Positions 33,001 to 62,945 of a stretch of DNA of 64,000 nt are shown piece by piece. The stretch is from Podarcis vaucheri. Taxonomy: Eukaryota. The stretch lies in NCBI GenBank assembly GCA_965113315.1, contig OZ220363.1, one strand, 5' to 3'. The translations under genes and the position numbers were made by a program. The notes below the pieces were generated by a model. It saw only the letters and a list, made by a program, of their open reading frames with translations. It ran no database searches and was not told the origin of the DNA. Within the stretch, counting starts at the first letter, position 1. Each line of letters starts with the position of its first letter.

Positions 33001-36000
33001 ATTATACTTTTTAAGGTGTTAAAAAGAAGTTATATATTTTCTAGATCATTGAGGGGTTATTTTCCTCCTGAAAAATACCGAGCTAATGTTTTCTTGATTG
33101 CGTTTAGCTCTCTCCATCTCTGGAGTGATAGATGTCGGGGTTCCTTTTCCCATGCTTTCTTTGTACAACACCTACAGCATACAAGAAAGTGTCCAGAAAT
33201 CAAAGAATTAGATTATTGTTGAAGAACCATTGTGTTAAGTTGTGTTACTGTTTAATCATCATCACTGCATAGGTGGGTAAAGAATTCAAGAAACAAAGTG
33301 GTTAAAAAGTTATTGGATAAAGCAAAAAACAAGAAGGGGGGAAGGAAAAAGAAAAAGTATTTAAAAAAATTAAAAGGAGTGTTTTCTTTAGGAATATGAA
33401 AATGGATAAGATTCAGATAAAATAGATGCAGGACAAGGTTATATCTGATGATGTTACTTTTTTTAAAAAAAAAGTATTTTTAAAAAATTCAATACCAAGC
33501 TAACGTTTTCTTGATTGCGTTTGACTCTTTCCATCTCTGGAGTGATAGGTGCTGGGGTTGCTTGCCCCAAATTTTCTTTATACAAAACCTAAAGATTGTA
33601 AAAAGTATCCAAAAATCACAAAAATATAATGTGAATAAGACTATTGTTTGAAGGAAAAGTATAATAACTGGGGCGGCACTTCAAATGTAGGCATTTTGCA
33701 AAAACAATTTAAAAATTTAATAAAAAATTATAAAGACACCAGTGTAAAAAGTCACATAATAGAAACTGATCTGTCCTGGTACAAGTGAAAGGCAAAATCC
33801 AAGGAGAAGAATGTACAACAGTGAATTAAGCAGGTAAAATAATTAAAAGAGGAATGTATTATTTTGAGATCAGGATTCTATCCAGTAGGCAACATCCATC
33901 ACTGTGTAATAGCTGTGCCCAGGGAAGTCATCACATATAAACTCATGGTCCAGTTTCTTGTCCTAGTTTTAACTACCGAATCACAAAGTATCTTGTGTCT
34001 CTCATTAGCTACATGAAGCTTTTTTTGTTCAGTGTGCTGTTGGAAGACCACTTGGGCAGCATGTTTTTCATGCTGGTGTTGGTTGTTCTGTTACTGAAGG
34101 GTGTTCCTGACTTTTGAGTCCTAAAACTCATGAATGCTGAGGCCTATGAATGCTGAATTCTATGGAGATTTATATTGATAGGGTGGGGAAACTATTTTAA
34201 AGGCCTTTTTCTGAAATCCCATTATCAACAATGTACCAATTTGGAAAGTAACAGCATCAATCATGTTGTTGTCTGTTCCTGCCTACATGCGATTTCCTAT
34301 GACATCTTGTGAAACCACCAGTTCATAAGTGTATGGGATGTTCAATCAAAATAATTTAGTGATTGTAGTATTATTTTTCTCATTATTACAAATTCGTTTA
34401 TCAAGAAATTTGTTATGTGGACCAGAAATCATATGGTCTAACAGTGTCTGGATAGAGTCCTATAGTCACCACTGCAAGGTTATAAGAAAAACCCTCTATG
34501 GTCAGATTATTAAATACCAAATATCAGATTTACGGTATTTTATGAGTAAAATGTAAGTAGTTTAAATAAACTTAAGGAAGAAAGTATAGTTTTAGATACT
34601 AGAGGGGAAACAATTCCCACAGCTTGTTAGGATGTTATTTAAAATATGTATATTTGTTTTTAAAATGTACCGAGCTAATGAACTCTTGATTGCGCTTGGC
34701 TCTTTCCATCTCAGGAGTGACAGGTGTCTGAGTCCCTTTCCCCAATCCCTCTTTGTACAAAACCTACAGGATACAAAAGAGTATCCAGAAATCATATCAC
34801 GGCAGATTGCAAACAAACATTATTGGCTTGTAATGTTAATAATTGGATCATGCCAGCTTTCCAGGAAAGCTGGCTGGCTGTTGATTTCCGTGTCACCTAG
34901 AAGAGACACCAATCAATCAACACCCATAAAGGGAAAGAATCTAGTAGGATGAGAAAGTTGGAAAGGTATAAATACAAACCAAACGTGAAATTAAGCCAAC
35001 TCCTAGTACTTATGTGTTAAAGCTTAGGTTGCAAAGAGAGTTCAGAAGATAGGGTGATTATGCCAAGAGGTGAGACTGGGTGCTATATTTGATTAGGAAG
35101 CATGGATCTTTATAACACATCTAATGTTATGGTAAACCATTCGGATCTTTTTTCTTCTTTTGAATACCGAGCTAATGTGTTGTTGATTGCGCTTGACTCT
35201 CTCCATCTCAGGAGTGACAGGCGTTGGTGTACCTTTCCCCAGTTCCTCTTTGTACAAAACCTACGGGATACAAAAGAGTATCCAGAAATCATAAGGTGCC
35301 AGTGATGGCATATCAAGATTAATAGTTTGTAAATGTTAACACTGGGGTCACACCGGCTTCCAGTAAAGCTAGCCATTGATTTTAGTGTCATCTGAAAGAG
35401 AGGACCCATGTAAGAAAACAATCTAGTAGGATGAGGAAGTTGGAAAGGTAGAAAATAAAGACGGAAATCCTATGTTTGCTGAAAAATAAAAAGGAGTAAG
35501 TCCTAGTAGTAGTGAGTTAAAACTTAGGTCACAGAGGGAGTTTGAAGGGGAGAATTCTTATGCTAAGTGGTAAATAGGAACTTTTGTTTTGTTAGAAAGC
35601 ATAGATCATTAACACATTGGATGTTATTTTTTAGAATCCAGGTCTTTGTGGGGTATTTTGCTTGTCTTTTGAATACCGAGCTAATGTGTTCTTGATTGCG
35701 TTTGACTCTCTCCATCTCAGGAGTGACAGGGGTCGGAGTTGCTTTCCCTACGTTTTCTTTGTACAACACCTGTGAGACAGAAGAGCAGCCGAGTAAACTA
35801 GCAATAAATGAATTGCCATGTTTTTGTTATTGAAGCATGAGGGGTAGAGTTCTGATTTGGTTGTGATTTATTCTGCAGGGTGTTTTGGGTTACAGTTTTA
35901 AAACAATGCATATAAGCACTTATTTTTGTCTGGGGAAAACAAGGACAAAGTATTGTCTTAATACATGGTCATGCTTTTGAATAATGGGCATTTTTTGCAT

Positions 36001-39000
36001 CCAAGTATAATATGCATAGAATGCCAAACAACTGGTGTGGGAAAGACAACAGATTGTTATGTTTTGGGAGGAATGTGAGTATAAGACCTAGAAAGGAAGA
36101 GAAGGGTTAAAAAGTCTCAGGATGTGACATTCTCCCACAGTGGAAAATAAAAGACAGGGAGGAGGTTTCACAATAGGGGTATATAACTCCATCTGCAGGA
36201 AGAAGCTGGGATGGAGAGCAGGGGTGAGTTAATCATATTACAAAACAGATTTTAAAATAACTGTTTTCCCAGAAGTACCGAGCTAATGATTTCTTGGTTG
36301 TGTTTGACTCTCTCAATCTCTGGCGTGACAGGAGTTGAGATTCCTGCCCCTAGGCTTTCTTTGTATAGCACCTGCATGATGACAAAGGGGAATACAGAAA
36401 TAAGAAAAATAAGGAAGGAAAACAACAGTTAATTTTGATCTGCAAAAAAGGGGGGAGGAATATGGTCTTAGATCTCCTGGGTATGAGCCTGTAGGTGAAT
36501 GTCCCATTTCCACAATCAATTTCCTGTGGTTTCATGCTTCCCCCCATCCTGTTACGTATCAAACATGGGTGCATTCATGTAATTCCCAATGTGTATGAAT
36601 CTAGCCAAATGGACGTACTTTTAAGTCCCATTGATTTTAGTAGGAGGGATTCAGTGAGTTTAATGCTACTATTGACGGCGGTGGGACTTAGAAATGCTTA
36701 ATTGGTGGATTGTACCCAAGGAACTCATTAGGATACCAAGGTGGAGGGTTTTGGTTGTTGGGCTGAGGATGAATAACCATAAAGCTTTGATTTACACTGG
36801 GAGTTTTGTAACGTTACTTCTTGCAGATCTCCACTTTCTATATTGTGTGTGCCACATCACAGTGGGGCAGGCTAGGGATTCATAATAGGATGTGTCTGGC
36901 CATTTCTTACAGAGAGCCATGTTGGTGAGATCAGCCGGTGGTTCTGGATAAGGTTTCTCTTCACCTTGGCAAAATAATGCAAGGGAAGGCATCGGAGAAG
37001 CAAAGAAACCACTGAGAAAGATATCACAATGTATGGATTTCCCAGGCAGAAATATAGTGTAACAGCAAGCTTAGAAGACCGATTCAACGGTGAATATTTG
37101 AGTATAAATATTATTTCATAAGATGCAAATGCTTCCATTGCCTTATTCCAGAAGGAATGCAACAATGGTAGCTGCAGAATGATTTTTCTAGTGCATTTTT
37201 GGCTGAAAATGTGTCGCACTACTTGTTCAACCCAGCTGGAGAAAGACCATATACTTTTTACAATAGCACACAGAAACAAACAGTGACTTAGAAAAAATCA
37301 AAATCAAGAAGGTCAAAACAGAGAAAGAGATAGGGCTGGGACAGTGAGAAGAGCAGTTAATAATATCCAAAATTATTGATTCCTTTTTTAAAAAGTGCGC
37401 CAAAAAAGAAGGCAGGGGGGAAATGACAATCAGTATACACCAAACATGGAGCCCTACACTGAAGTTCAATTCCCATTAGCCCTAGCCAGCACAGCCTAGA
37501 GTCAGGAATGATGGGAATTGAAGACCAAACAGTGGCTGGAGGGCACACTGGAGATGATAAATGGATTTTTTTCCCTGGAAGTCAATTGCATTAATGGAAA
37601 TAGAACAAACCTGGAACAAATATTTAAAAGTTAATTTTTAAAGGGTTGAAATGGAACTTTCATATTTGAACTACCAAGCTGTAGTTTTCTTTAATGCATG
37701 CAACTCTCTTGTTTCCGAAGTGAGGTGAGTTGGTTTTCCTGTTCTCAATTCTTCTAGCACTGGGCAGACGGATCCTGCTGGGAGGTTAAGGTGCAGATGT
37801 ATTGCACCCATTCATTGCACTCCCCATGTCTGAGGTCCATCCCTATGCCCTTGGGATGCTTGAAAAATCAGATATTGGTGAATTCTGATACAGTATAACA
37901 TGAGTCACACCTCCCAGACTCACATGCAGATTAAGAAATCTTTCATATTTCACACTTTTTCTAATTCTGCTAAACGGTTCTCAACATATTTTTAAAAAAA
38001 TATGTATTTTGGGACTGAATATGTTTAGAAATGTGTACGTTGTGAAAAAATACATTTTTGTTAATTAGAATTTTCTTGCAGGATTAAAAAATATTAATGT
38101 GGAATTGGGAGAGGATCAATATTATTTAAATCTGGTTGGAATGCATAGAGCAAAAATTGGCCTTGTTCAGCTGGGAGCAAATTCAGCACCATTCATGGAC
38201 TCAAAAAGAAATACTATCATTGAAATCATATCAAGATAGCTATGTTATGGAGGGGTTAAGGTTCAAGATGGTTAATTATATTTGGGGATGAAGTTAAAGC
38301 TCATTTTAGCGACAAAAATACCGAGCTAAAGTTTTCTTGATTGCGCTTGATTCTTTCCATCTCTGGAGTAATAGGTGTTGGAGTTCCACTCCCTAAATTC
38401 TCTTTGTACAACACCTGTGTGACAAAGAAGTGTCAAAAACAAAAAAATTATCTCAAGATACACCATCAGCAAAGATAGCACAATCTAATTTTCTGTTTTG
38501 CCTTATGGTGTTTAAAACACAGTCCAGAAAAAAATCAAAAAATAAAAATCACAAAGAGAAAGAAATGCTATATATTTTGACTTCCTGTCATGAAGAAAGT
38601 TGCAATCTGTGACCAAGTTTATTCAAATGCAGTAATATTTTCCCACCTAGAATGACAAAAACTCAGGCTATAAAAAGGGGAGGAAATTGTCAGAGGGTAC
38701 TAAAATCAAGTTTAATTATGTAAAACATGAAAGGTTAATCTTATTTGGGAATGATGTTATAGGGCATTTTTGTAACAAAAATACCAAGCTAAAGTTTTCT
38801 TGATTGCGTTTGACTCTCTCCATCTCTGGAGTAATAGGTGTTGGGGTTCCACTCCCTAAATGCTCTTTGTACAACACCTGTGGGACAAAGAAGTGTCAAA
38901 AACAAAAATGAAAATTAAGGGGCACATCTTAAGATACACCATCAGCAAAGAGAATGCAATCCAGTTTTCTGGTTTGCTCTATGAAGTTTAAAAAACAGAT

Positions 39001-41657
39001 CACAAAAAAATAAAAAGTGCATACAGAGAAAAATACCGCATATTATAACTTAAAACACCTATCATGGATTAAATTACAATTTGTGACTGAGTTTAGACAG
39101 CTGCATTGTTATTTTCACACCCTAAAACTACCCGTTTTGTTCTGAAAGACTACAATAGCATAAATAACATTTTATTATTCTATTTTTAAGAGAGGGGTTA
39201 CGGTTTTATTCTAAGTTTGCACTGCACCAACACAAATGCCAAAGGCTATTAGAAAATGTTTCCTGTTATAAGGATATATTGAATCCACTCTGAATATCAT
39301 TTGTTTTGAAACAAATAATATTGCCACTTGAGGGGAAGTGAATAGGGTAAGAAAAATAAACAGAGCTAAAGAAAACCCACTGCAGACGTATGTCACAGTT
39401 AGTGCTTTAATTTTTTCCTTCAGAGACTGACATTTTAGTGATTTTATTAAAATGAGAAGGATTCAAAAGCTTGTGGAAGGATTAAAATATATTTATCAGA
39501 GTGTGGCAATGGTTAAAGGGATTTATCTATAGATATTTTGTGATATACCGAGCTAACGTTCTCCTGATTACGCTTTACTCTCTCCATTTCTGGGGTAACA
39601 GGAGTTGCCGTTCCTGTCCCCAAGTTTTCTTTGTAGGACACCTGTGAGGTACAATAAAGTATCCACAAAAGACACTCAAAAATACTGGCTAGTACTTTGT
39701 AGTTAACGGCGCATGTTTAAATCCCATGCTTAGTCGAGTATCGAAAAGGAAAGATGTGAATAAGGGGAGAGTAGTCATTAAAATGTGAATGGAAAAGAAA
39801 AAGTCAGAAGAAGTACATTAAGAGAAGTGAATGTGTGCAAAGGGAGCACATGGTTAATCTTATTGAAGATCATAGGTATTATTGTCATTGTTTTATTTAT
39901 TTCTTTTAAAAAACTGCATAAAACTGTAAATTGATGTTAATGCACATCAGAATGAATGAGTCATGAAAATGGCATGTAGAAGATGATAGTTAGAATGTTG
40001 TTATTATTTTTTAATGAAAAAGATGAGTTATGGTAGGTTTGATTTCATGGAGAAATACCGAGCTAATGTGTTCTTGATTGCGTTTGACTCTCTCTATCTC
40101 TGGAGTAAGTGGAATCGGGGTTCCTTGCCCTGCATTCTCCTTGTACAAAACCTGCAGAATACAAACAGCCACAAAGGTAAGAAAAAGGTAGCTGAAAACC
40201 TTTCTGCAATGCAGAATGTTAATTAACACACTGACTTTGCATATAATTATTTGGACATTGCCCATTGGGAGTATAAAACTGCCCGAATACAGGTGTCTCC
40301 ACAAAATGCCATCCCTGTTCACATGTTTCCACTTCTAGATGCCTCTGGGGAAAAAGTGCCAATCACCTGGAATTACAGGTATCTCTTTTTTGTGGTGTAG
40401 TTCTTTTTAAAAGTTTGGGGCTATTGCTGCTGGAGAGACGTAAGCATTTCGAAACCTCCTTGATAAAACTTGTTATATTGGTATTGAATAGCCAATGAGA
40501 AATCAGTTTTTGTTCTTACACCATTACCCTTGTCATGAGTTTTGCTTTGAGGCCAAATCTAAGAACAAAATCTGAGGACTGAGAGATTTAAGCCCTGTTT
40601 TGGTTTTATTTAAAAAAGAAAAAAGAAAAGAGATAGACTGAGAGAGAAAGAACAAAACTGAAGTCCTTGGCAGTTTTTTTAAAAAAAATGTCCTGCATTT
40701 CACTCCTTTTAAAAAGTGCCCTCTTCCCCAAATGGAAAAAACAAAACAAAACAGTTAAGTCAAAAAGGCATTCAGTCAGTTCAAAATGTCGAAAGCAAGA
40801 GAGGTAAATTTGTAGTTAGAAAAGGGTAACTAGTTTGCCTTCCTGTAACTTGATTATGCAGAAATGAATTTTGAAAACAATTAGTATGGTGAAGAGCTCA
40901 GGGTAAAAGGGAAGGCAGAGCGGGAAAGAGAGGAGAAAGAACCAGCTGGAACCAGTTCCTTGATAAATGTCACTACATCTTCTCCTACTGAAACACTCAA
41001 GAATACCCATCACTTAAGTGGCCAAATGATGCTAGACAGAATTCCCATGTTCTAATAAATGAAATCCTACCCATTCAGAGGATGGCCCATTAAGATTTGA
41101 ATAAAGCAGGAGGCCCACTTAAGTGGGCAAGAATAAATTGTTTGGATTTTCAGACCCAAGACTCAAGAAGCAACAGGTGCTCAGACTTCAAGAAGCAGAT
41201 ATCCCATCTGACACATAATTAAGCCCATTCACAACAATGGTCTTAAGTACACTTTGTGTTCGCTTGTGGCTAGTGTGTCTCTGAACATGTACAAAGTGCC
41301 TTTCACCACAGCCAGGTTCCACATGTCGCTGAGCACTCCCCTGACCAGTAGGTAGGTGGGTATAAAAGTAAAGGGGACCCCTGACCATTAGGTCCAGTCG
41401 TGACCGACTCTGGGGTTGCGGCGCTCATCTCGCTTTATTGGCCGAGGGAGCCAGCGTACAGCTTCCGGGTCATGTGGCCAGCATGACTAAGCCACTTCTG
41501 GTGAACCAGTGCAGCGCACGAAAACACCGTTTACCTTTCCGCCGGAGCGGTACCTATTTATCTACTTGCACTGTGACATGCTTTCGAACTGCTAGGTTGG
41601 CAGGAGGTAGGTGGGTATAGCAGGGGTCATAATTTTGTCAGTTACTACTGCTATTAT

Positions 41658-41692
<35 letters not shown>

Positions 41693-42928
41693 TTTTATCC
41701 TCTTGGTCCATTTCTGTCTGCTCAGCATTAAATGGGTCTATATTCTCCTCTCAAGGTGCACAGAGAGTAAATCTTAAAGCTAATGGATGTTAAAGCCCGA
41801 GTAATACTAGAGGAATGCCATACTAAGGATGAAGTTGATGATAGCATGTTAGCAGGGGCAATAGATGTCTGTTTAGTAAGGTGAACAGCACACTGTTACT
41901 GCCCAGTGCACACACAAATCAGCATAGAAAATATCAGCCACTACCGAGCTGATGTGCTTCTGTGTCTCCTTGACACGTTTTACTTCAGGAAGATCAGAAA
42001 TGGGAGTTCCTTTTCCAATTTGATCCTTGTACTTAATCTACAAAGTGGTATTCAGTTCAGAAAACAAGACAAAACAATAATGACTTACATTATGTACATG
42101 AAACAGATATCCATTTCACATAAAAAGAACAAGAGTAAACGAATATAATCACAATTGTAGGAGCTGAAAGCATTGCATGCACCCATGTCGAAACAGACAT
42201 CTGTGGAAAACGAGTTTTTGCAAAGATTTAAAATTCGATGTATAAAACCCAATCTCCAATTTGATAGAGGAGGAAGAGCCATGGATGGACACCTTGACTC
42301 AACAATCTTACCAATGTAGTAGAAACAGGAGGATGAAAGCTTCCCACCAGGTTCCTTGCTTTAAAAGCTATTTTAATCGTCAGTAAACAAGTATGAGATT
42401 ACTGTATTTTGCAGCTCAAGTGCAACCTGGCCGAAAAAAATAGATTTTTGATCATGGCATCCATTACAGAGCTTCTCCTTTTTAAGCCCCTGGCCCTGTT
42501 GTACGACTACCTTGTGTTGACAATGCCAGGCAAATCTTCAGAGAGTAGCCTGGAGTGGCCATGCATCTCCTCAGCTGCATCCCAATGGGACACTGTTGTT
42601 GGGATGCTGTTCTGAGACCTTCCCACGGCCATTGTCAATACTGGGCCCCTTGCAATTGTGCTGGCTGCTGATATCAATCAAATTTTCAGTCCAGTTTAGG
42701 AGAGTGTGCCTAAATTGTTTCAACTCTAGTAACTTTCTTTGGATTCATTCCCACTAGATTCCGGAACCTAGACTTGTGGCCATAGGTTTTGTATGCCGTG
42801 GGGTTTTTCCCTCACACAGGAAATAGGTAATGTGCACTGAAACACACGGCACTGGCCAACGCAGAAGCATGTGAATGAGCCTCTGCAAACTGGAACCTCT
42901 GCCTATTCAGAGGAGACACTGGGCTAGG

Positions 42929-42977
<49 letters not shown>

Positions 42978-45900
42978 TAGTCTCCAATGCATTATATTTG
43001 AAATGAGTAATATCGGTGCTTCCTATCCACCTCCCGTTCTATCCAGCATGGGTGACAATACATGTACAACATTCAATAAAAACATTTTTTACCTCTTTTT
43101 TAAACCAAATGTCAAAAAAGGAAAGTAAGACATTGTGCGGAACACAATCAAATGAAAAATAATTTTGGCAATCCTACCATACGTACTGGGGTTTGGGGGG
43201 AGATGAAGTAGAGAGAGAAAACAAAAAATATCAGAAATAATTATCTAAAATTATTGTTAGTTTTAAAACGTAGTCACTATATTTGCTACCATGAGTATCT
43301 CATCGACATTTCGGACAAGATCAAAATGTGAATTTAGTTTCAGTATTTTATGAAATGATAAACATTAGTTGAACATTAGAAAATGTTAATAGTTAAGAGT
43401 TTTTGAAATGTGGAGACTATTTTACATAGGAAAGTAAAAGTAGAATGGAAGAGCTAGTTAGCAAATTATGTTTTGATTAATTACGAAAAACCTTGACTTT
43501 TCAAGTTATTCCATAACTGCTGTTAGGATCATGTAAGGCAAATGAAGTTTTATAAGTTGGGAACAGCACAGGTAAGAGTGTTAACAATCCACTGGGTTTT
43601 GTACCGTGCTTATTGCATCCTGGGTTTGTTTAATTCTCTGCATCTCGGGCGTCTTTTCAATAGCTGTTCCTGTTCCAATATCTTCTTTATATAAAATCTT
43701 AACCAAGACAACAAGATTGAGCATAGAAAAACAACAACATTGTCATTTGCTACAGAAAGACTACAAAACAGTGGAATATTAAGAAACCTCTAACTGGTTC
43801 CTTGATCATCAGTGCATTCACTCACACAGAAGAGATTCCCATTGATTTCAGAAGCTTTTGCTTCCAAGCAAGATTATCCTTAGGTAATATGTGTACTTCT
43901 CCATATTTTGTGATGTAGTTCTCCAACAAAAAAAATAGTGTGCAAAACGTGTATATTGGGGGAAAGTATGCATAAAACGCACAACTGAGTGAAAATATTT
44001 TTAAATGCACCAGATATTTACTAAAATGTATATATTAGGCAAAATGCATACAATGGGAGAAAGCACATTGAAATGCTGGTGAGTTTTTTGAGGCTGTTCT
44101 TTTTTATTTTTAAAGCAAACGAATGCAAAAACAGAACTGAACTTAAGATAAGAAAAATGTTAACTCAAAACTAGACAGCTTCATCCATCCCTGTTTTCAG
44201 GATCTTGGGGACTTGTGGAGGAGGGAATTTCTGCTTCAACTATCCTGGTTCATGCATGCCTGTTACATTGTCTAAGTAAAATGGGAATGGCACTGATTTT
44301 AACGTAGACATGGCTTTCCACTGTTTTGATCAGACATCCATGGATAGATCTTCATGGTTAAACTTGCTAATTAAGAACAAAGCAGAGCATACACGAATTA
44401 GCTGCTAAAAGACGACACAGCAAGCCTATAAACAGCTACAAATCCATAGCCACATTGCAAAACAAGGGCAGATATTTTGTACTTCTACTGTCAGATGTGG
44501 GGTACACAACCCACTGTGCAATGATGGAAGCAGTTGAAGGAGAGAGTGTGTAAAGGAATAGCAACACCTACACATATAATAAGGTACACATAATTAGTGT
44601 AAAATTGCATGGCCCTGACCGCCGACATAAAAGCCTGGATATACATAGTAAACAAGAAGCACCATTCATATCAAGGAAGATTCCTGTATGCTGAAGGATC
44701 TGCAAAAGTAGGGCAACAAAATTAAGGATTCGCTTTGTGGTGTAAAATAAGGTTACCGTGCTGAAGTTCTTCTGGTTTTCTTTAACTCTTAATATCTCTG
44801 GTGTTTCATTTACAACTGTGACTTTTCCTTTGCTGTCCTGTAGATCATGCTGGTACTTGAGCTGTTAGGAGAACACATATTTTTGTTTATTGCCCTTGCA
44901 ATAAAGAATTCAGTCTTGCACCTTTATTTCGTTGGTATTCTGTATAGCTTTCTTATAAATAAATTTAAAAATCATTTAGGAATACTGAAATTTGAAGTCG
45001 CACCTGACATCTGGGTCATCTAAATTCAGCTGCTGTTTGAACACATGAGATTTCCAATGGGCACCCAGATAAAAGGACAGAATCTTCAATCATCACGAGG
45101 CATTCTCTCAGCATTTACAGAGAATGGAGAACCCCATGCATCGTAGGGTAGGGAGTCTGGGTGCACAGAAGATTTTGCTATTGGGGCCCACATTTACCCA
45201 TTCATGTTTCCATCAGCTGGTGCTGTTTTCAAACACATGCGACCTCAGGTAAACTGCACTACGATCTGCACATATGCTGTATCCTCACCATCCACCCACA
45301 CTTTTGTAACCTTGTATTCCACCTGTCCTGCATCCCAGCCACCCAATTTTCAGTTTTTCACTGTAAGGTATGATGCACAGAGACAAAGGCAGTGTTGAAA
45401 CGGTCATGAGGAACAGTGTACTACATCCTTCTTGAAAGGGGAGACTTTGACTGAAACCATGCCTCTCCTCTAAGCCACACACACACAAACATGCACATAC
45501 AAAATGGGTAAGTTCATACAAGACCCCACAGCCTTTCAGGTGTTGCTGGACTCCAGCTCCCATCAGCCCCAGCCAACATGACCAGTAGTCAGGGATGGTG
45601 AGAGCTAGAGTCCAAAGACATCTGCAGGGCCACAGACTCCCCATCCATAATGAGACGTTGCCTGACACCACCTCTGATGTTGTTGAGCGAGGAAGAATAA
45701 AAGACAAATAAAACCTTCCCATGCATCGTGAGAGCTGGTTACGCCAGGACAGCGCAATGCAAGAAAACAGCTTTAGTGCCATTGCTTCCAAACAGGAACC
45801 TCATCTGTGCTTGCACAGTCACCATGGAGATTTCTATCCATCTATCTGTAAATGTGTGTACACACGCTTTTACATCTTCGAACCTTACACAATTACTTTT

Positions 45901-48900
45901 ATCTTAACCCAAGCAAGCAAGAGGCATTCTTACAGCTCTGGGATGTGTTCCAGCCATGCAAAAGCTCTTGAGGAGTGTGTGAGGGATGTAGCCTGAGGAG
46001 GTGGAATATTTGTCCTCAAAAGCGGAATCTTCTGTCCTGTGCTCTGCATGGGTCTGAGCAAGGTGTAAAACCCAATTTATCAATGGATGAGCAGGGGTTA
46101 AACCCTGCCCTGTTGGCTGTGGGGCATGGCATGAGCTGCAAACACAGAACTGAACCCTGCCCATCAGCTGATTGTCAGGTGGGTGTGGGGTTATTTTTTG
46201 GGGGGGGGAATTGTCTCAGGAGTCAAATTGGACCCTGCCAAGCTTGGCCTGTGGTCTGGAGTTTTCCCACCTCTGGCCTACATTCTGCACAGGACTTCAC
46301 AGCATCACATATTTATAAATAATCACACTTTTCACTGTGTTTACAATACATTAATACCTACCATGCTGAAATTCTTTTGGTTCTCCCGGACTCTCTGCAT
46401 TTCTGGTGTGTCTAAAACAGACACATAGTATGACATAGTTCTCTCTGCATCCTCCTTATATTTTTTCTGTTAGTTGGGGGGAGAGAGGATCAAGATTTAT
46501 TGTTATGGTAAAAAAAAACAACCAAAAAGAAATGTATGCGCTCAATGTCCAAGAGGCAATTTGCACAAAAACATGTTTATGGTTATCTGGAGTTGAGATA
46601 TGTGTGAAATGGTTCCTACGTGAAAGAAGCTCCTATCAATAGGGAGCAAGACCCTCCTTTAAAAAAAAAAAAATCTGGCAAAGCTAGTTGAAAACAAACA
46701 CGATCATTACCTGACTTGAAAAGTTCTTCACATGGTGGGCATGGATGATGTCTGGAGTGTCAACCACCGTGGTATAGTGGGCTTTTTCCATTTCTGCAGA
46801 CTGCTTATATTTGATCTGTTGGGGGAAAGGTCACAAGCAGATATCCACAGTGAGTACATTTATGAACACAGCTTCCTCTTGATTTCCCCATAGGAAATCT
46901 ACAGAGAAGGTTCCCCTTAAAATTACTCCCAAGTGTTATTAGTGCCTGGCTGTTCTCACTGACCTGGCTAGAGATGTCCATAGCATTCTTTGCCCTCATA
47001 TAATCAGGCGTTTCTGTGGTATGGCCTGTCAAGCCTCTTCCTTTGATTTCCATCTCTAGAGCTTTCTTGTATTCTTTCTGTTGTGGTTTTTTTTTTTTAA
47101 AAAAAAGGATTAATAGAGATGAGACCATCACAATGGGGCAGGTTTTTCAAAAGTAACACTTATCCCAATTCACCAAGGGTGATCTTGATGTGACTCAAGC
47201 TGCTGCCCATACAACATGCAAAAAAAGTGTGTCCCACAGAAGAGAAACGTATGCAGTCGAAGAAGCATTCACTCTTCACAGGCAGTCTAAGTCATTTGAC
47301 CATTTGTGTTGCCTAAAAGGCTCGTTTTCTGGCTAACACCTCAAAAGGAAATTATCTAACTTAATTATCTATCAACAAATATGTTGATTTCCTAAGATTT
47401 AAGAAGTGTCTAATACACAGTTTAGGAAGTTTGCTTAACTTAGCTTTTCACACACGCTAATTTCAGAGGATTAAAAACGTTTGAAACACAGCTCAAATAG
47501 CACACAAGGGTCTAGCTATCACCTTGCACAGGACACAAGCTTAATTAGCTGTATGTTTCCTAGCACCTACAAACCCATTACAAAAATTGACCTGGGCAGG
47601 TAAGTGGGATCTGACTCTGAGATATAATCAATGCTTCAGAAATTGCTGGAACCCAGGCGTATAATTTCTCTTTAAAGATAGCTTTGTTGGAATTCTTCCT
47701 ATGAAAGGCCGTTCTGACATTACGCAAACAGCCTGGGAGAGATGCTGTAGCACTGCTCATTACCATGCCAACGTTGTCCTTCTTCTGGGAGTCATAGGGT
47801 GGAGCCACATCATGCATTTCTCCCTAATGTCTGGGGCTTTTGACATTAATCCAGTGCAGAAGAAGGGGGCCATGCTGCAGTGGCCCCCAAGGGAAGTTAG
47901 CCTAGCTATGTGCCTCACCTCATTCAAGATATAGGTTGCATTCTTTGCTCTGAGTAGGTCTGGGGTCTCTTCCAAAATGGTTAGGCCTTTACCTTTGACA
48001 CCTTCTTCCAAATCTCTCCTGTATTCTTTCTAGAGGGGGTGGGGAGAAAAAGAAAACTGAAGAAACCAAAGAGAGAAAGAGCTTCAAGGAGGATGAAGGA
48101 GACCCCCCTCCCCTAAAAAGAGTTAGTAAATGGCCTTCAGATTATCTTAAAGCAAGACTTAGTTAGGGTGTTCAAGGTTCAACCTTCTAGATAGTCACAC
48201 AGCTTGACACAACAACTTCAGTAAAGAACACAACATATAGTGAAACAATGATCTCTGTTCCACCAACAGGAAAACATTAATGCTGCTAATACAATTAACA
48301 ATTAGTGATTTAAAAAAACCACACACCAATGGACTAGAACAAGCAACAAACACAGATTAAACCATGCATTTAAGAGAAATGTTTAAGGCTAGTAAAGAAG
48401 GTAGTGAAGGGACTGCTTTGGTAAGGACAATTAATGAAACTAGTAGGGTGGTTCACAGCAGAAGACAACAGAGCAGGTGCTACCTCGCTTGCTATTTTGG
48501 TGGCATATCTGACATGCAAAAGAGATGGTGTGACCTCCAGGCCAGTAAGGTTCCTGCCTTTCATGGACTCTTCAAAGTCTTTTTTATATTCTTTCTAACA
48601 GGAGTAGGAAGAAGAAGAAGAGGAGAAGGGGAAAAAACAGAATTTATTTTGGATCTGTGCAGGAAGAATATTTTCAAGTACTGTACTGTTAGTTTTGGGT
48701 CCTGTCTTGCCCTTGTTGTGTCAAGTTTGCTGGTCGGCCATTCGGTGTTGGGTGGGGGTTTAGCAGCGTGGTGTAGTGGTTAGAGTGTTGGACGATGGCC
48801 TGGGAGACAAATTCAAATCCCAACTCAGCTATGCAAATCACTGGGTGGCCTTGGGACAGTCACCATCCCTGGGGCTAAAATGGAGAGGGCAGAACCATGT

Positions 48901-53609: not shown

Positions 53610-55693
53610 TCCCTCCCTTCGGCCAGTATTATGTTCAGGGGCTCAACTCCCAGTTCTGCCTCATACTTGGTTTCATGGGCAAGCTGCTTGTCACTTATGA
53701 CTAGCTACACCCCTCAAGGCAGCCATTTTGCGACTAGCCATAGTTTTCCAGCTGCCATTATGTGGTGATACTCATAAGCTTTTCCAAATGGGCCCATGAG
53801 CCTGAAAAGGGTTGGTAACTACTGGCCTAAAGGCCCACACATACCTCGCTAGCGATGTGGTGGGCATCTTTTAAGGTCTTGTAGATCTTGGCTTCCTTCA
53901 GGTCGTATCGCGGCTTATTGCCCTTCTCCTTGTCAAACTTCTCTTTGTATTTGATCTAATTCCAAGAGGAACAAGTGTTAAAACAAGGTCCTGAATTTTA
54001 GCTTGTCTGGTGCCACGGGAGAAAGAGTCCACATTCAGATTGTCAAAACAGATTCCGATTGCAAGCAGACAGGTTGAACAATGCAAGCCATAAGACCTCT
54101 TTGAAAAAGAAGATACCATTAACGAAGGTCTGGAATATTCACGTGATGCAGCAACGAACTTGGCACACACTGCATTTACAAGATTTCATGTTGCGTCTTT
54201 CATTCAGTAGTTGTGTTTCAGCTCCACATTTGAAATATATAACTCATTCATTGGGGGGGGGTCTGAATGTTGTGTGTGTGCAGCATGGCTATCAAGAGAC
54301 ACAAGAGCAAAATTATGACTGCATTGTGCATTTTTCTGTGGCCTAAAATGGGTGTTTCCTGATACAGGGCAATAGAAACATCTGACTTTCTAAATATTTC
54401 TTTCCTGCCTTCCCTCCCAGGGATTTTGAGCAGCATTCAAGTCTCAGGGTAGATCTACACACAGGGGGGAAACCACTATAAATAAGTCAGAAACTAGATC
54501 GTTATAACAAAAAATTTAAAAACCGCTATGGAAAATTTTCCTGCTCTCTGGCGTCATCTGGTGTTCAAATCATTGTTTCTTTACTAATGATGAAAGTAGG
54601 TTTGTCGGAGACTGTAATTTGCCCAAGACTCCTCCCAGTAAATTTTACAGCTCAGCATGGTTTTGAACCAAGATTTGCTACACTGGAGCCCAATGTTCTC
54701 CCAATACACTGCCTAATCAAAGAGGCAGTTGCATTTGATCTGATAACTATCATTACTGGCTTTAAGAGAAATTGCAAAAAGACTGTGATTTTGAATAAAA
54801 AGACATGTTCATGATAGAGAATAAAGGTCCTGCTAGATGCTCTATTCTCTCAGTACTAGAATTCCGAAGAATACTATAATGCACTTTTATTTACAATGAC
54901 TTTCCTATGTCCTCTGATGGACAGTCCAGTTCTGCCTGACAACTGAAGTGAGCAAATGCGGCTTGGTTACTTTCATTCTAATGGAGGAATAAACAGATTC
55001 ACCATGTTTTCAGTCGAAGAACTTGCCAGGGGATATTACTGCTTACTATTACTTTGCACTGTTAGTGTGGAAAGTACACAGAGCAAGGTTCTTAAGACTG
55101 AAAAGCTTCATTATCAAGGAACTCCATAAAAGAAGAGGTAAGATATTAGTCATTTGCTAGAGAGAAAGAGAAAATAGCAGTTATACAAATCCTGGCATGA
55201 GCCAGCAAAAATTAAGCACCTGGATTCCAAATGATTTCAACGAGAGCTTATGGTGTATTTTAGCCCTCTCACATTGAAATCAATGGTTTGATATGCTTAA
55301 TTTTACATGGATGGCACCCAGTCTTCACCCCACCCCTGGCAAGAGCTGATTGACGTAACTGATGAAAGGAATAGATCATGCTAGGGAGCAATGCACAGGG
55401 CTGAAAAGAAGAAAAGTTTAACGTTAGAAAACTGGAAGATGCCGCAGTGCAGATTTCAATTCCATTCCACGATTCTGGATGTCTAAAACATGTTGGCATG
55501 TTTTTATCCACACAACCCTGTATCCTTCATGCTGGATAGCCTCATCTTTTGGACATGGGTTGACAAAAGATGCCAGTGGTCAATATTCAAGTGACAGTCA
55601 AGTACACTGTTTATGTTTACTTTTTTAAAAATGCAGGACACTCTGGGCACTGACGCTCTTGGGAAGGAGAAGACTCTTCCTACAATGACACAG

Positions 55694-55726
<33 letters not shown>

Positions 55727-58700
55727 AACACAAATGACATATTACAGGTAGGTGGGGACCATTATGGGCCACCACAATTCAGAGATGCATTTTGTGTCTG
55801 ATTTCTGAATGAATAGTGGCTCCACAGGGCACAAGCTACTTTCTTAGAATACTATGTGGGTTTCAAAAGCATTTTGACATTTGTCGTGAGGACCCACTAG
55901 ATCAAAATGCAAGTCTCTCATTAATACTTGTGATTTCCATCAGGATTCCGTACTTGCTAAACAAGATTTGTTAATGGATATGAGATAATGAACAAAAAAC
56001 AAGAGGCAGGGGGACTTGTTTCAATATTAAAACAAAAAGCAGCAACAAAACCGTGAGACACAGTAAACAAGAGTATCAATAGCAGTGACAGCATAGATGA
56101 CGCAAGACACTGTGTAGATGGTGTTTTGACAGTTTTCATGGCAAATTCCTGCTGTTTCTCACAAGTAGAGAAGGACAGTTTTTGACATGCAGCTGTTCCA
56201 TGCAACAATCACAAAGAGAAATGGGAAATAAAAACATCCCCCTTTATTCCTTATGAAATTTCTGCCCATAACCTGTAGAAAATTGGTGCAAATATGTCAT
56301 TTACTTTCTGAACCATTTGAGAGCAAGTGAAGAATCATCTGAAAATGTCTGTCCACAAATAACAGTAGTTAAGGAGCTATTTGCAAGAGTTTAGGAATTT
56401 GTTGGAAGGTAATTCATCAGAAGCCTTTCCCCTAAATTGGTGGCTTTTAATAGGGGTGTCCATATTGTTATATTCAATGAATGTAGACTTCGAGGACTGT
56501 GTACAGAAATAGTTGAGCTGTTCACTCGTACAATTTTTTACATGCAGCATTCCACAAGAGCATATTTTGTGTACCTGCAGCAGTTAAGCTATAAGAGCTT
56601 GTACCTGTGCTCAGTGAAATGTGTGGACAAGCTTATTCTGTTTCAAGAAACTCTGGGTTCTTAGTGAGAAGGTCAGTAATGATGAACTAGCTTCCCTGAA
56701 CAACAGCTTGTCCACTGCTACTGCTCTTCCTCTGCGATCCTAGGTTCTAGGCTCTGTGGTTTAACCCACAGCACCACCAGTGTAAATGTTTGACTAAATT
56801 CCCCACTTTCATGTATTTTGGGCACCTCAAGCCTTTTCTTGAAGCCGAGACATTCTCAGAACAAATTCACTGTCAAAGAAATTCCCAAGCAGAACTTTGC
56901 ATAAGGAAGAAAGGGGAGGCCTCACAAATCCACAAGGTTTTAATGTTCTTTTTTAAAAATGAAAAAATAGAAGCAGTGCCTCAAACACTTAGGATTGTGC
57001 CAAGAATATAGGCTCTAGCAAGAGACTTGTGAAATTGGTAGCAGCGTAGGAGACCCGCTGAAAATCCATCTTACATGGCTACTTAGGACATTAGCTTTCT
57101 TAACGTGTCTCATCATGGGCGTGTCGTATGATGCAGCCCCATGGCCCCTCATGCGTCCTTTGATGTATTCTGCCTACAAAGCGTAGCAAGATAGCAAGAT
57201 TAGAATGGCAAACCTCCAAGATGGACAAAGCAAGAAGCTGAGGTAGAAGAGCCGGTGATATTCCCGTCTTTGTGGGGGGGCAGGGAGTCTCGTGGGAAAC
57301 AGCATGGGTCAGAAATGCACCAAGTGAAGTCGGTCAAAGTTTGGCAGAGAGGAAAGAGGCATACGCTAGCACCAAAACGCAAAAATGTTAACACATTGTT
57401 TGAAGCACTTTTTTAAAAAAAACATGCCTGAGGGGAAAGTCCAGTGCTGCTACCCTCACTATAGAAATATATAACAGCACAAACATTAAAATGTCTGCCA
57501 AAGAAAATTGATAAGGGAATAACTGGAGAAAAGACAATAAAAACAAAACATTTTGCCTCCCAGTATACAGCAAATGACCAAACATTTATGGCATGTTTTT
57601 TTAACACAAAAATTGTTTCAGGTCATTGGTATGGGAGCCCGGTGCCTTCCATATGTTGTTGGACTTCAGTTCCTATCACCCGCAGCCAGCATGGGCAATG
57701 GTCAGGGGAGATGGGAAGAGTTGGCCAGAAAATATTAACCACCCCGATCTCAAATAAATTATCTCTAAAGCTGCTTTATCTGTAAAGTCAACATTACATC
57801 AACATGATTGCAAAAGAAAATGTGTGCCATATGGTTACAAGTTGAAGCAGCCACCTGTTCATACCTGGCTTGTAAGTCTGGACACCTCCTTGGCAAGTTC
57901 AATATCTGGACGTCCAAGCATGCTGACTCCCAAACCAGCTTCTCCACGAGCTTTGGCTTTATATTCAATCTAAGACAAATATATGAAATGTCAAGGGGTT
58001 ACAAAAACAAAAACAACCCCCCCTCTGGCTTCTACATACTGAAATGAAACTATTTATATGCATGCTGTCATATTGCCACAAGTTACTGAACAGTTACACT
58101 GATAAAGTACTTACATCACTGACTAAATGGGAGACTTGGGTGGCTTTCTTAATATCAGGGCGATCCGCCACACTAGTGTAATGGAGCTTGGATTTGGCAT
58201 CCTTTTTGTATTGGATCTAGGTGAAAACAAGGATAAAGAGAAGCAGTTACTGTTGTGTTTTCTTTTTAAGGAAAGAACAAGATCCTCTTGATGATAATGT
58301 TTTCACCAGAGCTATTGTTGATGCCCACCACCCATGCGAAAACTGCATACGCTTCACTGTAATGAAACAAAGTCTGCATGGAAAAGCTACAGCCACCCAT
58401 GTCAACGTGTGTTTCTCCTATGGCCCACGGCTTCGAAAGGATTATTCCTTATATTGCCCATCCAGGGTTTTAATGACATAACTGGAGGAATAACTTACAG
58501 TGCTCTGATTCTTTGCAACTTCCATGGCGTGTTTCACATCAGGAGGCTCCAGCATGATTGAATAGTCTGACTTGCCTTTCTCCTTGTGGAATTTCTTTTT
58601 ATAATTTGTCTGTTTCGGAACAGAAAAGAGTTGTGTCACACATTCTTCACCTGAGGCTTACTTTGCCGACATTTATAATAAGAAACATAGGTGATGACTT

Positions 58701-61700: not shown

Positions 61701-62945
61701 GGGGTGGACATTTCTCTATCCCACACATATCTAAAGTTGGCATGAGATGCACTGCCTCATCCGATCTGGCTAGGAGTTTCCGTAAGCGTATGGAAATTAG
61801 GCACCGAAAGAGGCCTCAGCTGAGTGGGACCTGGGAGCCCTACACCCTCAGTTTCCTTTGTAAGGCTTAGTCACCGGCAACAATAGCACTGGACTCACAT
61901 TGCTGTTTACTTTGTAGGCCTGCTTGGCAGCTTTGATATGAACGGAATCCGGTACAACGTTGCAGTGAGACTTATTCTGTTGATAGACTTCTTTGTATTT
62001 CAGCTATCGAAAGAACAAGAAGGTTAACGTTGCACATCTCTTTATACGGCTAAACAGAAATCACCCCAGGGAAAATTGTGCTAATCTGCCCTGGTAGGTC
62101 CAAGGAGGCACTGAATTTAGCAAACATCTGAACAGTGGAGCCCCATTTGCCCTAAGAGAACAACCTCCACTGCATCAAAGTATCCTCCTCAACCAGCAGC
62201 CTCCAGCACCACCTCCCACACTGTTCCAGAAGTTTCCCCCCAGCCCACCAGAATTGCATGAGGGTTGTGTTAGGAGCTGCAGGAGAGAAACAGGGATTTG
62301 GCAAATGTCACTTCCAACCTTCTGCCAAATGGGAGAGCCTGCTCCTGCTGGTGGAAGCAAAGTCTAGTACCAACCCATAATACGTAAGCCTATGGGCCTT
62401 TCTCTTAATCCCCATAAAAAGGTAAGCAATCTGAGTGGTACATAATGTGTAAATATGAGAAAATTCATTAATTCATTAATAAATTCATTCATTCTCCTAC
62501 CATGAATCTATTGTTTCAACAAGTATTGGCTTATAGCAAATAACCATACTTATAAACACTGCTATGAAATGTGAGCTATGTTGAAAATAAATAATTATAT
62601 TTTAAATAGTCTAAGGCTTAGCTTTTATAGTGATGCAAACAAAATCTAATATATATCATCTTACAGACTAATGAGCAAAAAATGAATTTGGAACTTTGCT
62701 AGACACAGTTTATATAGAATGATTGGTCTCACCTGAAGTGTAGATTTGCGAGTAGGGATGCTGGAGTCAATGAGCTGAGTCATGTCCTATTCCATTGGCT
62801 CCAGCATCCTGCGAGGTAGAGGATATTGTTTACTTACATCGCTTACTCTGTCCTTGACCTTCCGTACGTGGAGTAACATGGGAGTATCATGGATTGTGGT
62901 ATATCCCTTTGGCTTGGCCTTGTTATATTCCAGTTTGTAGAGGAT
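26832..62945 (-). CDS. NEB: Nebulin, spliced CDS span of the 3' part (38 coding exons in window), 5'-incomplete
   Basis: Phase-0 exons of 93-114 nt encoding nebulin modules (S-x-x-x-Y-K spanning exon junctions), then [19 protein letters not shown], the serine-rich region and a C-terminal SH3; tail-to-tail with RIF1 as in mammals. Confidence 0.97.
27412..27521 (-). CDS. NEB: NEB Ser-rich exon ([36 protein letters not shown])
   Basis: ttccag / gtaagg. Confidence 0.93.
28369..28518 (-). CDS. NEB: NEB Ser-rich exon ([17 protein letters not shown]...TTTA)
   Basis: cctag / gtacaa. Confidence 0.92.
28688..28780 (-). CDS. NEB: NEB exon ([30 protein letters not shown])
   Basis: ctgcag / gtatgt. Confidence 0.94.
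29522..29705 (-). CDS. NEB: NEB exon ([12 protein letters not shown]...[13 protein letters not shown]...EMNT)
   Basis: ttccag / gtactc. Confidence 0.94.
29879..30255. mobile_element. hAT-type non-autonomous DNA transposon
   Basis: tagggctaggcgatat...atatcacccagcccca inverted ends; perfect 8-bp TSD ctctgcat (29871-29878, 30256-30263). Confidence 0.85.
30385..30492 (-). CDS. NEB: NEB exon ([36 protein letters not shown])
   Basis: gttag / gtaagt. Confidence 0.94.
33079..33171 (-). CDS. NEB: NEB 93-nt Z-repeat exon ([31 protein letters not shown])
   Basis: tgtag / gtattt. Confidence 0.92.
33496..33588 (-). CDS. NEB: NEB 93-nt Z-repeat exon ([31 protein letters not shown])
   Basis: tttag / gtattg. 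Confidence 0.86.
34671..34763 (-). CDS. NEB: NEB 93-nt Z-repeat exon ([31 protein letters not shown])
   Basis: tgtag / gtacat. Confidence 0.9.
35168..35260 (-). CDS. NEB: NEB 93-nt Z-repeat exon ([31 protein letters not shown])
   Basis: cgtag / gtattc. Confidence 0.9.
35677..35769 (-). CDS. NEB: NEB 93-nt Z-repeat exon ([31 protein letters not shown])
   Basis: cacag / gtattc. Confidence 0.92.
36279..36371 (-). CDS. NEB: NEB 93-nt Z-repeat exon ([31 protein letters not shown])
   Basis: tgcag / gtactt. Confidence 0.9.
37675..37760 (-). pseudogene. Degenerate (frameshifted) nebulin Z-repeat pseudo-exon
   Basis: Minus strand GTGCTA GAA GAA TTG AGA ACA GGA AAA CCA ACT CAC CTC ACT TCG GAA...AGA GTT GCA TGC ATT AAA GAA AAC TAC AGC TTG|gtag aligns to the 93-nt exons but lacks the YK codons and has a 1-nt deletion. 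Confidence 0.75.
38322..38414 (-). CDS. NEB: NEB 93-nt Z-repeat exon ([31 protein letters not shown])
   Basis: cacag / gtattt. Confidence 0.92.
38785..38877 (-). CDS. NEB: NEB 93-nt Z-repeat exon ([31 protein letters not shown])
   Basis: cacag / gtattt. Confidence 0.88.
39549..39641 (-). CDS. NEB: NEB 93-nt Z-repeat exon ([31 protein letters not shown])
   Basis: cacag / gtatat. Confidence 0.9.
40059..40151 (-). CDS. NEB: NEB 93-nt Z-repeat exon ([31 protein letters not shown])
   Basis: tgcag / gtattt. Confidence 0.92.
41365..41604 (-). mobile_element. Sauria SINE, 5'-truncated
   Basis: High similarity to 4333-4639; 15-bp TSD aggtaggtgggtata at 41350-41364 and 41605-41619. Confidence 0.88.
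41644..41691. repeat. (ACT)n microsatellite
   Basis: tactactact run. Confidence 0.9.
41945..42037 (-). CDS. NEB: NEB exon ([31 protein letters not shown])
   Basis: tgtag / gtagtg, 93 nt. Confidence 0.92.
42934..42975. repeat. (GT)n microsatellite
   Basis: gtgtgt run. Confidence 0.95.
43605..43697 (-). CDS. NEB: NEB exon ([31 protein letters not shown])
   Basis: ttaag / gtacaa, 93 nt. Confidence 0.92.
44757..44861 (-). CDS. NEB: NEB exon ([35 protein letters not shown])
   Basis: aacag / gtaacc, 105 nt. Confidence 0.93.
46362..46466 (-). CDS. NEB: NEB exon ([35 protein letters not shown])
   Basis: aacag / gtaggt. Confidence 0.93.
46711..46815 (-). CDS. NEB: NEB exon ([35 protein letters not shown])
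   Basis: aacag / gtaatg. Confidence 0.93.
46964..47077 (-). CDS. NEB: NEB exon ([38 protein letters not shown])
   Basis: aacag / gtcagt, 114 nt. Confidence 0.93.
47919..48029 (-). CDS. NEB: NEB exon ([37 protein letters not shown])
   Basis: tctag / gtgagg. Confidence 0.93.
48484..48594 (-). CDS. NEB: NEB exon ([37 protein letters not shown])
   Basis: gttag / gtagca. Confidence 0.93.
48760..48966 (+). mobile_element. tRNA-derived SINE (CORE/MIR-like)
   Basis: A-box-like tggtgtagtggttagagtgttggac, B-box-like attcaaatcc, A-rich tail aaataaaataaaaata. Confidence 0.7.
50613..50748. mobile_element. Degenerate palindromic MITE related to 10649-10785 (other copies near 37455-37545, 45530-45640, 57630-57730)
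   Basis: gactacaacctccatcatccctga...gggagctgta core; gcagcc...ggctgc ends. Confidence 0.55.
50903..51007 (-). CDS. NEB: NEB exon ([35 protein letters not shown])
   Basis: ggcag / gtaagg. Confidence 0.94.
51980..52084 (-). CDS. NEB: NEB exon ([35 protein letters not shown])
   Basis: tttag / gtaagt. Confidence 0.94.
52909..53013 (-). CDS. NEB: NEB exon ([35 protein letters not shown])
   Basis: atcag / gtaagc. Confidence 0.94.
53310..53610 (+). mobile_element. LINE 3' end with embedded (GT)n and terminal (TAA)n tail
   Basis: gtgccaggcaaaa...ttgtaaactgccctatgatcctcagatgaaag...tatagaaatttaa followed by (aat)n at about 53560-53609; (gt)n at 53422-53465. Confidence 0.6.
53845..53955 (-). CDS. 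NEB: NEB exon ([37 protein letters not shown])
   Basis: attag / gtatgt. Confidence 0.93.
55694..55721. repeat. (AC)n microsatellite
   Basis: acacac run. Confidence 0.9.
57075..57173 (-). CDS. NEB: NEB 99-nt divergent repeat exon ([33 protein letters not shown]), apparently extra relative to human
   Basis: ctttgtag acceptor, CAT|gtaaga donor, phase 0, open, DTP...HVKKA...LSS nebulin signature. Confidence 0.8.
57865..57969 (-). CDS. NEB: NEB exon ([35 protein letters not shown])
   Basis: cttag / gtatga. Confidence 0.93.
58115..58216 (-). CDS. NEB: NEB exon ([34 protein letters not shown])
   Basis: cctag / gtaagt, 102 nt. Confidence 0.93.
58499..58609 (-). CDS. NEB: NEB exon ([37 protein letters not shown])
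   Basis: aacag / gtaagt. Confidence 0.93.
59745..59855 (-). CDS. NEB: NEB exon ([37 protein letters not shown])
   Basis: atcag / gtaaac. Confidence 0.93.
59962..60066 (-). CDS. NEB: NEB exon ([35 protein letters not shown])
   Basis: cccag / gtaatt. Confidence 0.93.
60771..60875 (-). CDS. NEB: NEB exon ([35 protein letters not shown])
   Basis: tgtag / gtgagt. Confidence 0.93.
60987..61091 (-). CDS. NEB: NEB exon ([35 protein letters not shown])
   Basis: aacag / gtaagg. Confidence 0.94.
61899..62003 (-). CDS. NEB: NEB exon ([35 protein letters not shown])
   Basis: gatag / gtgagt. Confidence 0.93.
62838..62945 (-). CDS. NEB: NEB exon ([36 protein letters not shown])
   Basis: gccag / gtaagt, 108 nt. 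Confidence 0.94.

Follow-up and report, generated by a model that had tools for sequence, protein, structure and literature searches.

The 3′ part of the nebulin gene, carried on the minus strand of the window (the whole 64,000-nucleotide stretch of Podarcis vaucheri DNA analysed; own-genome position 106206001-106270000), contains a 99-nt cassette exon at 57075-57173 which is real and whose open frame is not due to chance. Very probably it is an ancient cassette, held from lamprey to human and spliced in and out in close relatives, whose inclusion would insert one simple repeat, long enough to span one actin subunit (~5.5 nm), after the last super-repeat and before the Z-disc region. The exon is already known in print as a possible exon: in the available parts of their paper, Gohlke et al. 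(2020, J Gen Physiol; PMC7754682, Fig. 3 legend and Data S2) present a 'newly identified possible exon' at M163/M164. Since the exon is thus in print, the novelty claimed for it by the initial annotation is gone. What is new here is the splice evidence for both inclusion and skipping, and a lamprey orthologue which dates the exon to the common ancestor shared with lamprey.

The cassette exon and its splicing in close relatives

The exon and its neighbours are listed in the order of transcription.

58115..58216, minus strand: last exon of the last super-repeat, spliced to 57969
57865..57969, minus strand: upstream exon, the first linker exon past the last super-repeat, which joins the cassette or skips it; presumably human exon 154
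57075..57173, minus strand: nebulin linker-region cassette exon, 99 nt, phase 0/0, 33 aa
57069..57074, minus strand: donor gtaaga of the cassette (CAT/GTAAGA), agreeing with the U1 consensus at 7 of 9 positions
53845..53955, minus strand: downstream linker exon, whose first 30 bases form the loose ends of inclusion and skip reads; presumably human exon 155

Read on the minus strand from 57173 to 57075, the sequence is cgctttgtag/GCAGAATAC...AGCCAT/gtaaga (slashes mark exon borders), giving the borders tttgtag/GCA and CAT/gtaaga and a frame without a stop that encodes 33 aa in phase 0 at both ends. Sequence and frame check agree with the initial annotation, which had described an open, phase-0, 99-nt nebulin exon with this peptide. 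The exon has one match in its own genome.

The splice sites were scored with leave-one-out matrices built from the window's own nebulin exons. The donor, which had been called strong, does follow U1 at seven of nine positions, though it ranks only 25th of 33; the acceptor, described as pyrimidine-rich, is among the weakest on the window matrix, at rank 31 of 33. The exon had also been called atypical. This holds for its YI in place of YK, a departure found in three further exons among the 33, but not for its length, since 33 aa lies inside the published range of 31-38 aa. The four non-YK starts (YI, YR, YQ and YS) belong to the cassette and to the exons at 47919, 44757 and 30385, and the remaining 29 exons start xxYK. 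The non-YK exon at 30385-30492 (minus strand, VLYSD...) is probably orthologous to exon 178 (as we number it), which is highly conserved.

Nebulin (PF00880) was the sole Pfam family matched by the cassette (E=0.022; 15.2 bits against a gathering score of 20.1); the Pfam unit is split by exon borders, the upstream neighbour reached 14 bits, and of five exons scanned three had no match at all. A PDB sequence search returned 0 matches at E<=10. When the 52-aa open frame was compared by word index with proteins of 92-2000 aa, 2 candidates came up, none at E<=10.

The last super-repeat ends with an exon of the 58115-58216 type (PMC7754682, the available part of Table S2), and the cassette is therefore the second exon past the super-repeats. 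Its position corresponds to the linker repeats (M163/M164), outside the Z-repeats. The neighbours 57865-57969 and 53845-53955 are as the initial annotation gave them; each has an annotated human orthologue, and these two human exons are adjacent. The available text of PMC7754682 describes annotated human and mouse nebulin as lacking the cassette. Counting from exons 143/144, the human copy would lie in intron 154.

Other exons of the region were also recorded. Linker exon 46964-47077 (minus strand, 38 aa) has a gtcagt donor and the lowest acceptor score of the 33 exons: an A-run replaces the pyrimidine tract just before the AG, with a T-run further up. Possibly this exon is alternatively spliced, or else the A-run is an assembly error. 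A scan that may miss some exons found at least 12 of the Z-repeat type, each exactly 93 nt long, within 33079-43697 (minus strand), a count falling within the 12-15 exons of this type reported for three reptiles in the available part of PMC7754682.

Four of the 24 listed runs were compared with 56800-58300: X1 and X2, as contigs presumed to be RNA, and X23 and X24, as raw RNA-seq. About 12% of each raw run's reads was used, and the main weight was placed on these two. The RNA reads come from close relatives (organisms A and B) rather than from the window's own organism; DNA runs of organism A had 0.57-0.60 of sampled words in common with the window. Exon 53845-53955 lies outside the compared stretch, and the downstream and skip junctions were therefore taken from loose ends.

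The joint 57865>57173 was found in all four runs, with 24 reads in X23 and, in X24, 4 reads plus 3 with a short overhang. Loose ends at 57075, identical to the first 30 bases of the exon at 53955, were found in three of the four runs (30 reads in X23, 5 in X24 and one X2 contig), corresponding to 57075>53955. The skip form, in which 57865 is joined to 53955, was seen in 3 reads of X24, a low count from one of the two raw runs; X23 had no skip row among the rows listed (those of at least 3 reads). All three junctions were thus seen in close relatives, and inclusion in X23 and X24 together with skipping in X24 supports the earlier suggestion of a probable alternatively spliced cassette. Reads joining the cassette to both neighbours rule out mutually exclusive splicing with one of them.

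Inclusion differed between runs. It was near complete in X23 and partial in X24, where two measures disagreed (0.60-0.67 by junctions vs ~0.3 by depth). Exon:neighbour depth was 38:19 in X23 vs 6:20 in X24 (Fisher p=3e-4), and 38:26 vs 6:14 at a second reference position (p=0.04); the junction-only comparison gave p values of 0.007-0.08. In the X2 contigs, the cassette path had a depth of 8.8 against 21.4 for its flanks (ratio 0.41). Cassette reads in the raw runs always had their first mate on the plus strand, as expected for minus-strand RNA in a stranded library. One variant was listed in the cassette, a synonymous one, and three in the upstream exon, two of them changing amino acids.

In X2, X23 and X24, nebulin-sense coverage within 56800-58300 was confined to the three exons, the rest being an intronic repeat fragment. 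This fragment, a dispersed repeat at 57636-57824 between the cassette and its upstream exon, aligns over short segments and in both orientations with many unrelated contigs and reads, which then continue into unlike sequence.

The upstream intron contains one further feature.

57174..57473, minus strand: candidate MBNL repressor element, with 11 YGCY in 300 nt beside the weak acceptor

The upstream YGCY count of the cassette ranked first of 32 exons (one of the 33 being omitted) at each of four window sizes, and its count of 7 was reached by 1 of 426 non-overlapping 150-nt windows. Against dinucleotide shuffles the excess was only borderline (p values of 0.02-0.06), and it was one of 8 motif-by-side counts. 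CELF-type motifs numbered 4 on each side of the cassette, and RBFOX and QKI motifs 0 on either side. Because the acceptor is weak and the YGCY cluster lies upstream of it, inclusion of the cassette is likely regulated. MBNL binding upstream of an exon generally promotes skipping, according to the available parts of PMC7564762 and PMC3880588, and putative repression by MBNL is our best guess, though less likely than not; it would agree with low inclusion in adult muscle, which in turn would account for the missing human annotation.

Proposed function of the included repeat

In a cryo-ET model (bioRxiv 10.1101/2021.10.06.463400, in the parts available), a repeat of 31-38 aa spans one actin subunit, the exon borders fall inside the SDxxYK motif (positions 18-23), and the contact residues are S18, D19, Y22, K23, D3, K11 and K30. 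On this scheme the cassette would supply Y22 with Ile at 23, and then D3, P5, K11 and S18 of the next repeat. Inclusion would create a degenerate SQ/AEYI, in which Tyr22 is kept and Asp19 and Lys23 are lost, followed downstream by a canonical SH/IKYK; skipping would give SQ/IKYK. As the repeat keeps Asp3, Pro5, Lys11 and Ser18, it would still follow actin, and the added unit would lie along one actin subunit, ~5.5 nm, with a weaker grip. A single nebulin repeat in isolation would not fold as it does on actin.

The place of the exon in the protein is also compatible with its being optional. Partial super-repeat changes are not tolerated, according to the available text of PMC7754682. The cassette lies outside the seven-repeat tropomyosin register, and its gain or drop would be tolerated; it would therefore be skippable, which fits repeated loss.

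Possibly, but in our judgement improbably, what the module is retained for is chiefly the docking of a partner, desmin or CapZ (M160-M170), rather than actin binding. In the available parts of a review (PMC7109182), the CapZ site is placed at M160-M164 and the desmin site at M163-M170, in the same region as the cassette. Furthermore, conservation within the exon is highest in the HGAASYDTP loop, with ASYDT kept in 41 of the 53 rows of the published alignment (Data S2, as available), and not in the actin motif: the residue following Tyr varies among L, I, V, T and K, and all 6 teleost rows with the exon lack Tyr. The Tyr22 grip on actin is therefore not universal. However, both docking sites were presumably mapped on annotated nebulin without the cassette, which would then not be needed for them, and the helix of a repeat ordinarily begins with the DTP...K...S pattern, according to the available cryo-ET description (bioRxiv 10.1101/2021.10.06.463400).

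Conservation, origin and the human copy

The available part of the PMC7754682 Data S2 alignment holds 53 vertebrate rows, which include no lacertid-type lizard and no lamprey. The cassette is present in 45 of them (partly filled in horse and carp). Eight rows are all gaps in this published alignment: three mice, rat, pig, cheetah, ermine and trout. Open orthologues occur in 12/12 primates, human included, 23/30 mammals, 8/8 birds, 3/3 cartilaginous fish and 6/7 teleosts. Compared by eye with rows of the same partial source, the window peptide is identical at 29/33 positions to turtle, at 29/33 to alligator and at 25/33 (76%) to human, and is better conserved in human than its two neighbours (21/35, 60%, and 20/37, 54%). 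The pig protein P0005 shows the skip form.

A phmmer search of 1.84 billion representatives gave 5 matches at E<=0.001. The orthologous module, in the same context, occurs in three of them: sea lamprey nebulin XP_032807711.1 and two nebulins of teleosts. Of the remaining matches, one is to a paralogous module in pig nebulin and one to an amphioxus protein. In sea lamprey RefSeq nebulin the module sits at the same place, has 33 aa and is identical at 22/33 (67%), the second highest identity of the 18 window exons aligned (34-69%). It is present in all 15 isoforms listed of a 20-member cluster. An orthologue in lamprey makes the exon older than the split between jawed and jawless vertebrates. 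By sequence comparison, the cassette exon is ancestral from lamprey to human, and the gaps in the alignment are scattered, affecting at least four lineages (murid rodents, pig, carnivorans and trout). The ermine and cheetah gaps may mark one carnivoran loss. The ermine is a carnivoran. The Fig. 3 legend of PMC7754682, as available, puts it among rodents.

Within the window, several comparisons single out 62838-62945 (minus strand) as the paralogous module closest to the cassette. The cassette could be an old copy of an exon of this type minus its first four codons, so that its Tyr would be that repeat's second Tyr rather than part of a decayed YK; we consider this rather unlikely. With the lizard exon as query, the 62838-62945 type was the best of 170 lamprey modules, the best of 65 pig modules and the second of 122 teleost modules, and the pig alignment sets Tyr3 of the cassette on the second Tyr. 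Yet with the lamprey exon as query it was best only in pig, third in teleost and outside the top 4 in lamprey; moreover, the two exons are 9 apart, not 7, and scores were low (52-64).

A decayed pseudo-exon, spliced in only as noise, would account for the degenerate actin motif, the weak acceptor and the loss or non-detection in 8 of the 53 aligned species. We regard this as very improbable given the near-complete inclusion in X23, the lamprey identity of 67% (17 other exons: 34-69%), and the identity to human exceeding that of both neighbours. The initial annotation's view that the module was lost in mammals or gained in reptiles agrees with annotated human and mouse nebulin lacking the exon (PMC7754682, available Fig. 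3 legend) and with the mouse and rat gaps, but stands virtually no chance against the open human orthologue and those in the other primates, most mammals, all birds, all cartilaginous fish and most teleosts of the alignment, and in lamprey.

The remaining question concerns the human copy. Perhaps, although we lean slightly against it, the orthologue presumed to lie in intron 154 is a live, regulated NEB exon that the 183-exon reference omits. Adult muscle would then repress it, possibly through MBNL, and it would be spliced in where muscle is fetal or regenerating, in certain muscles, or in myotonic dystrophy. Among the genes for nemaline myopathy, NEB is the main one. If the human copy is live, NEB diagnostics would overlook variants in the exon or at its splice sites, and the 'constitutive' linker region would serve as an adjustable spacer separating the Z-disc from the tropomyosin-registered filament. 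Exon-inclusion analyses rely on the annotated isoform NM_001271208 (PMC11026289, available parts), and an unannotated exon would therefore go uncounted. Mouse models could not reveal the cassette because the mice in the available alignment are without it.

In the mainly open-access literature covered, no paper was found that identifies the human copy as expressed, and none on NEB 'intron 154', although expression data may exist in print elsewhere. The cassette is not identified in the available parts of PMC7370890, PMC11026289, PMC11153343, PMC10415210, PMC7863720 or PMC7564762. The DM1 'NEB exon 116' of PMC7564762 may or may not equal the cassette, as may one of zebrafish exons 107, 121, 123/124 and 128/129 (PMC11153343), judging from the same partial sources. 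As the exon was in print, the reptile finding itself is ordinary. The added value is modest, and would be larger if the human copy were expressed.

Comparison with known nebulin exons and repeats

Compared with the nebulin simple repeat (PF00880; SDxxYK), the cassette has a length within 31-38 aa, an exon border inside the motif, and Tyr22, Asp3, Pro5, Lys11 and Ser18. It differs in having Ile for Lys23 and Gln for Asp19, the Gln coming from the upstream exon, so that across the border SQ/AEYI keeps the Ser and Tyr of SDxxYK without completing it; its 15.2 bits also fall under the Pfam cut-off of 20.1.

In the available parts of PMC7370890 and PMC11026289, the human Z-repeats of exons 166-177 are alternatively spliced and exons 143/144 are mutually exclusive. 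The cassette resembles both as an in-frame, single-module case of alternative splicing in NEB. Unlike a Z-repeat (93 nt, 31 aa), it has 99 nt and is without SSVLYK. It also differs from Z-repeats and exons 143/144 in being a simple cassette in the linker region, which these sources, as available, do not give as alternatively spliced.

The closest counterpart is the exon of Gohlke et al., as far as the available parts of PMC7754682 describe it. It shares with the window exon its position and flanking exons, with the M163 exon (...GRPD...SQ) on one side and the following linker exon on the other, as well as the HGAASYDTP core and the xEY start. The difference lies in the evidence: PMC7754682 calls the exon 'possible' and gives no splice evidence for it, whereas here it is joined to its neighbours by splice junctions and has an orthologue in lamprey.
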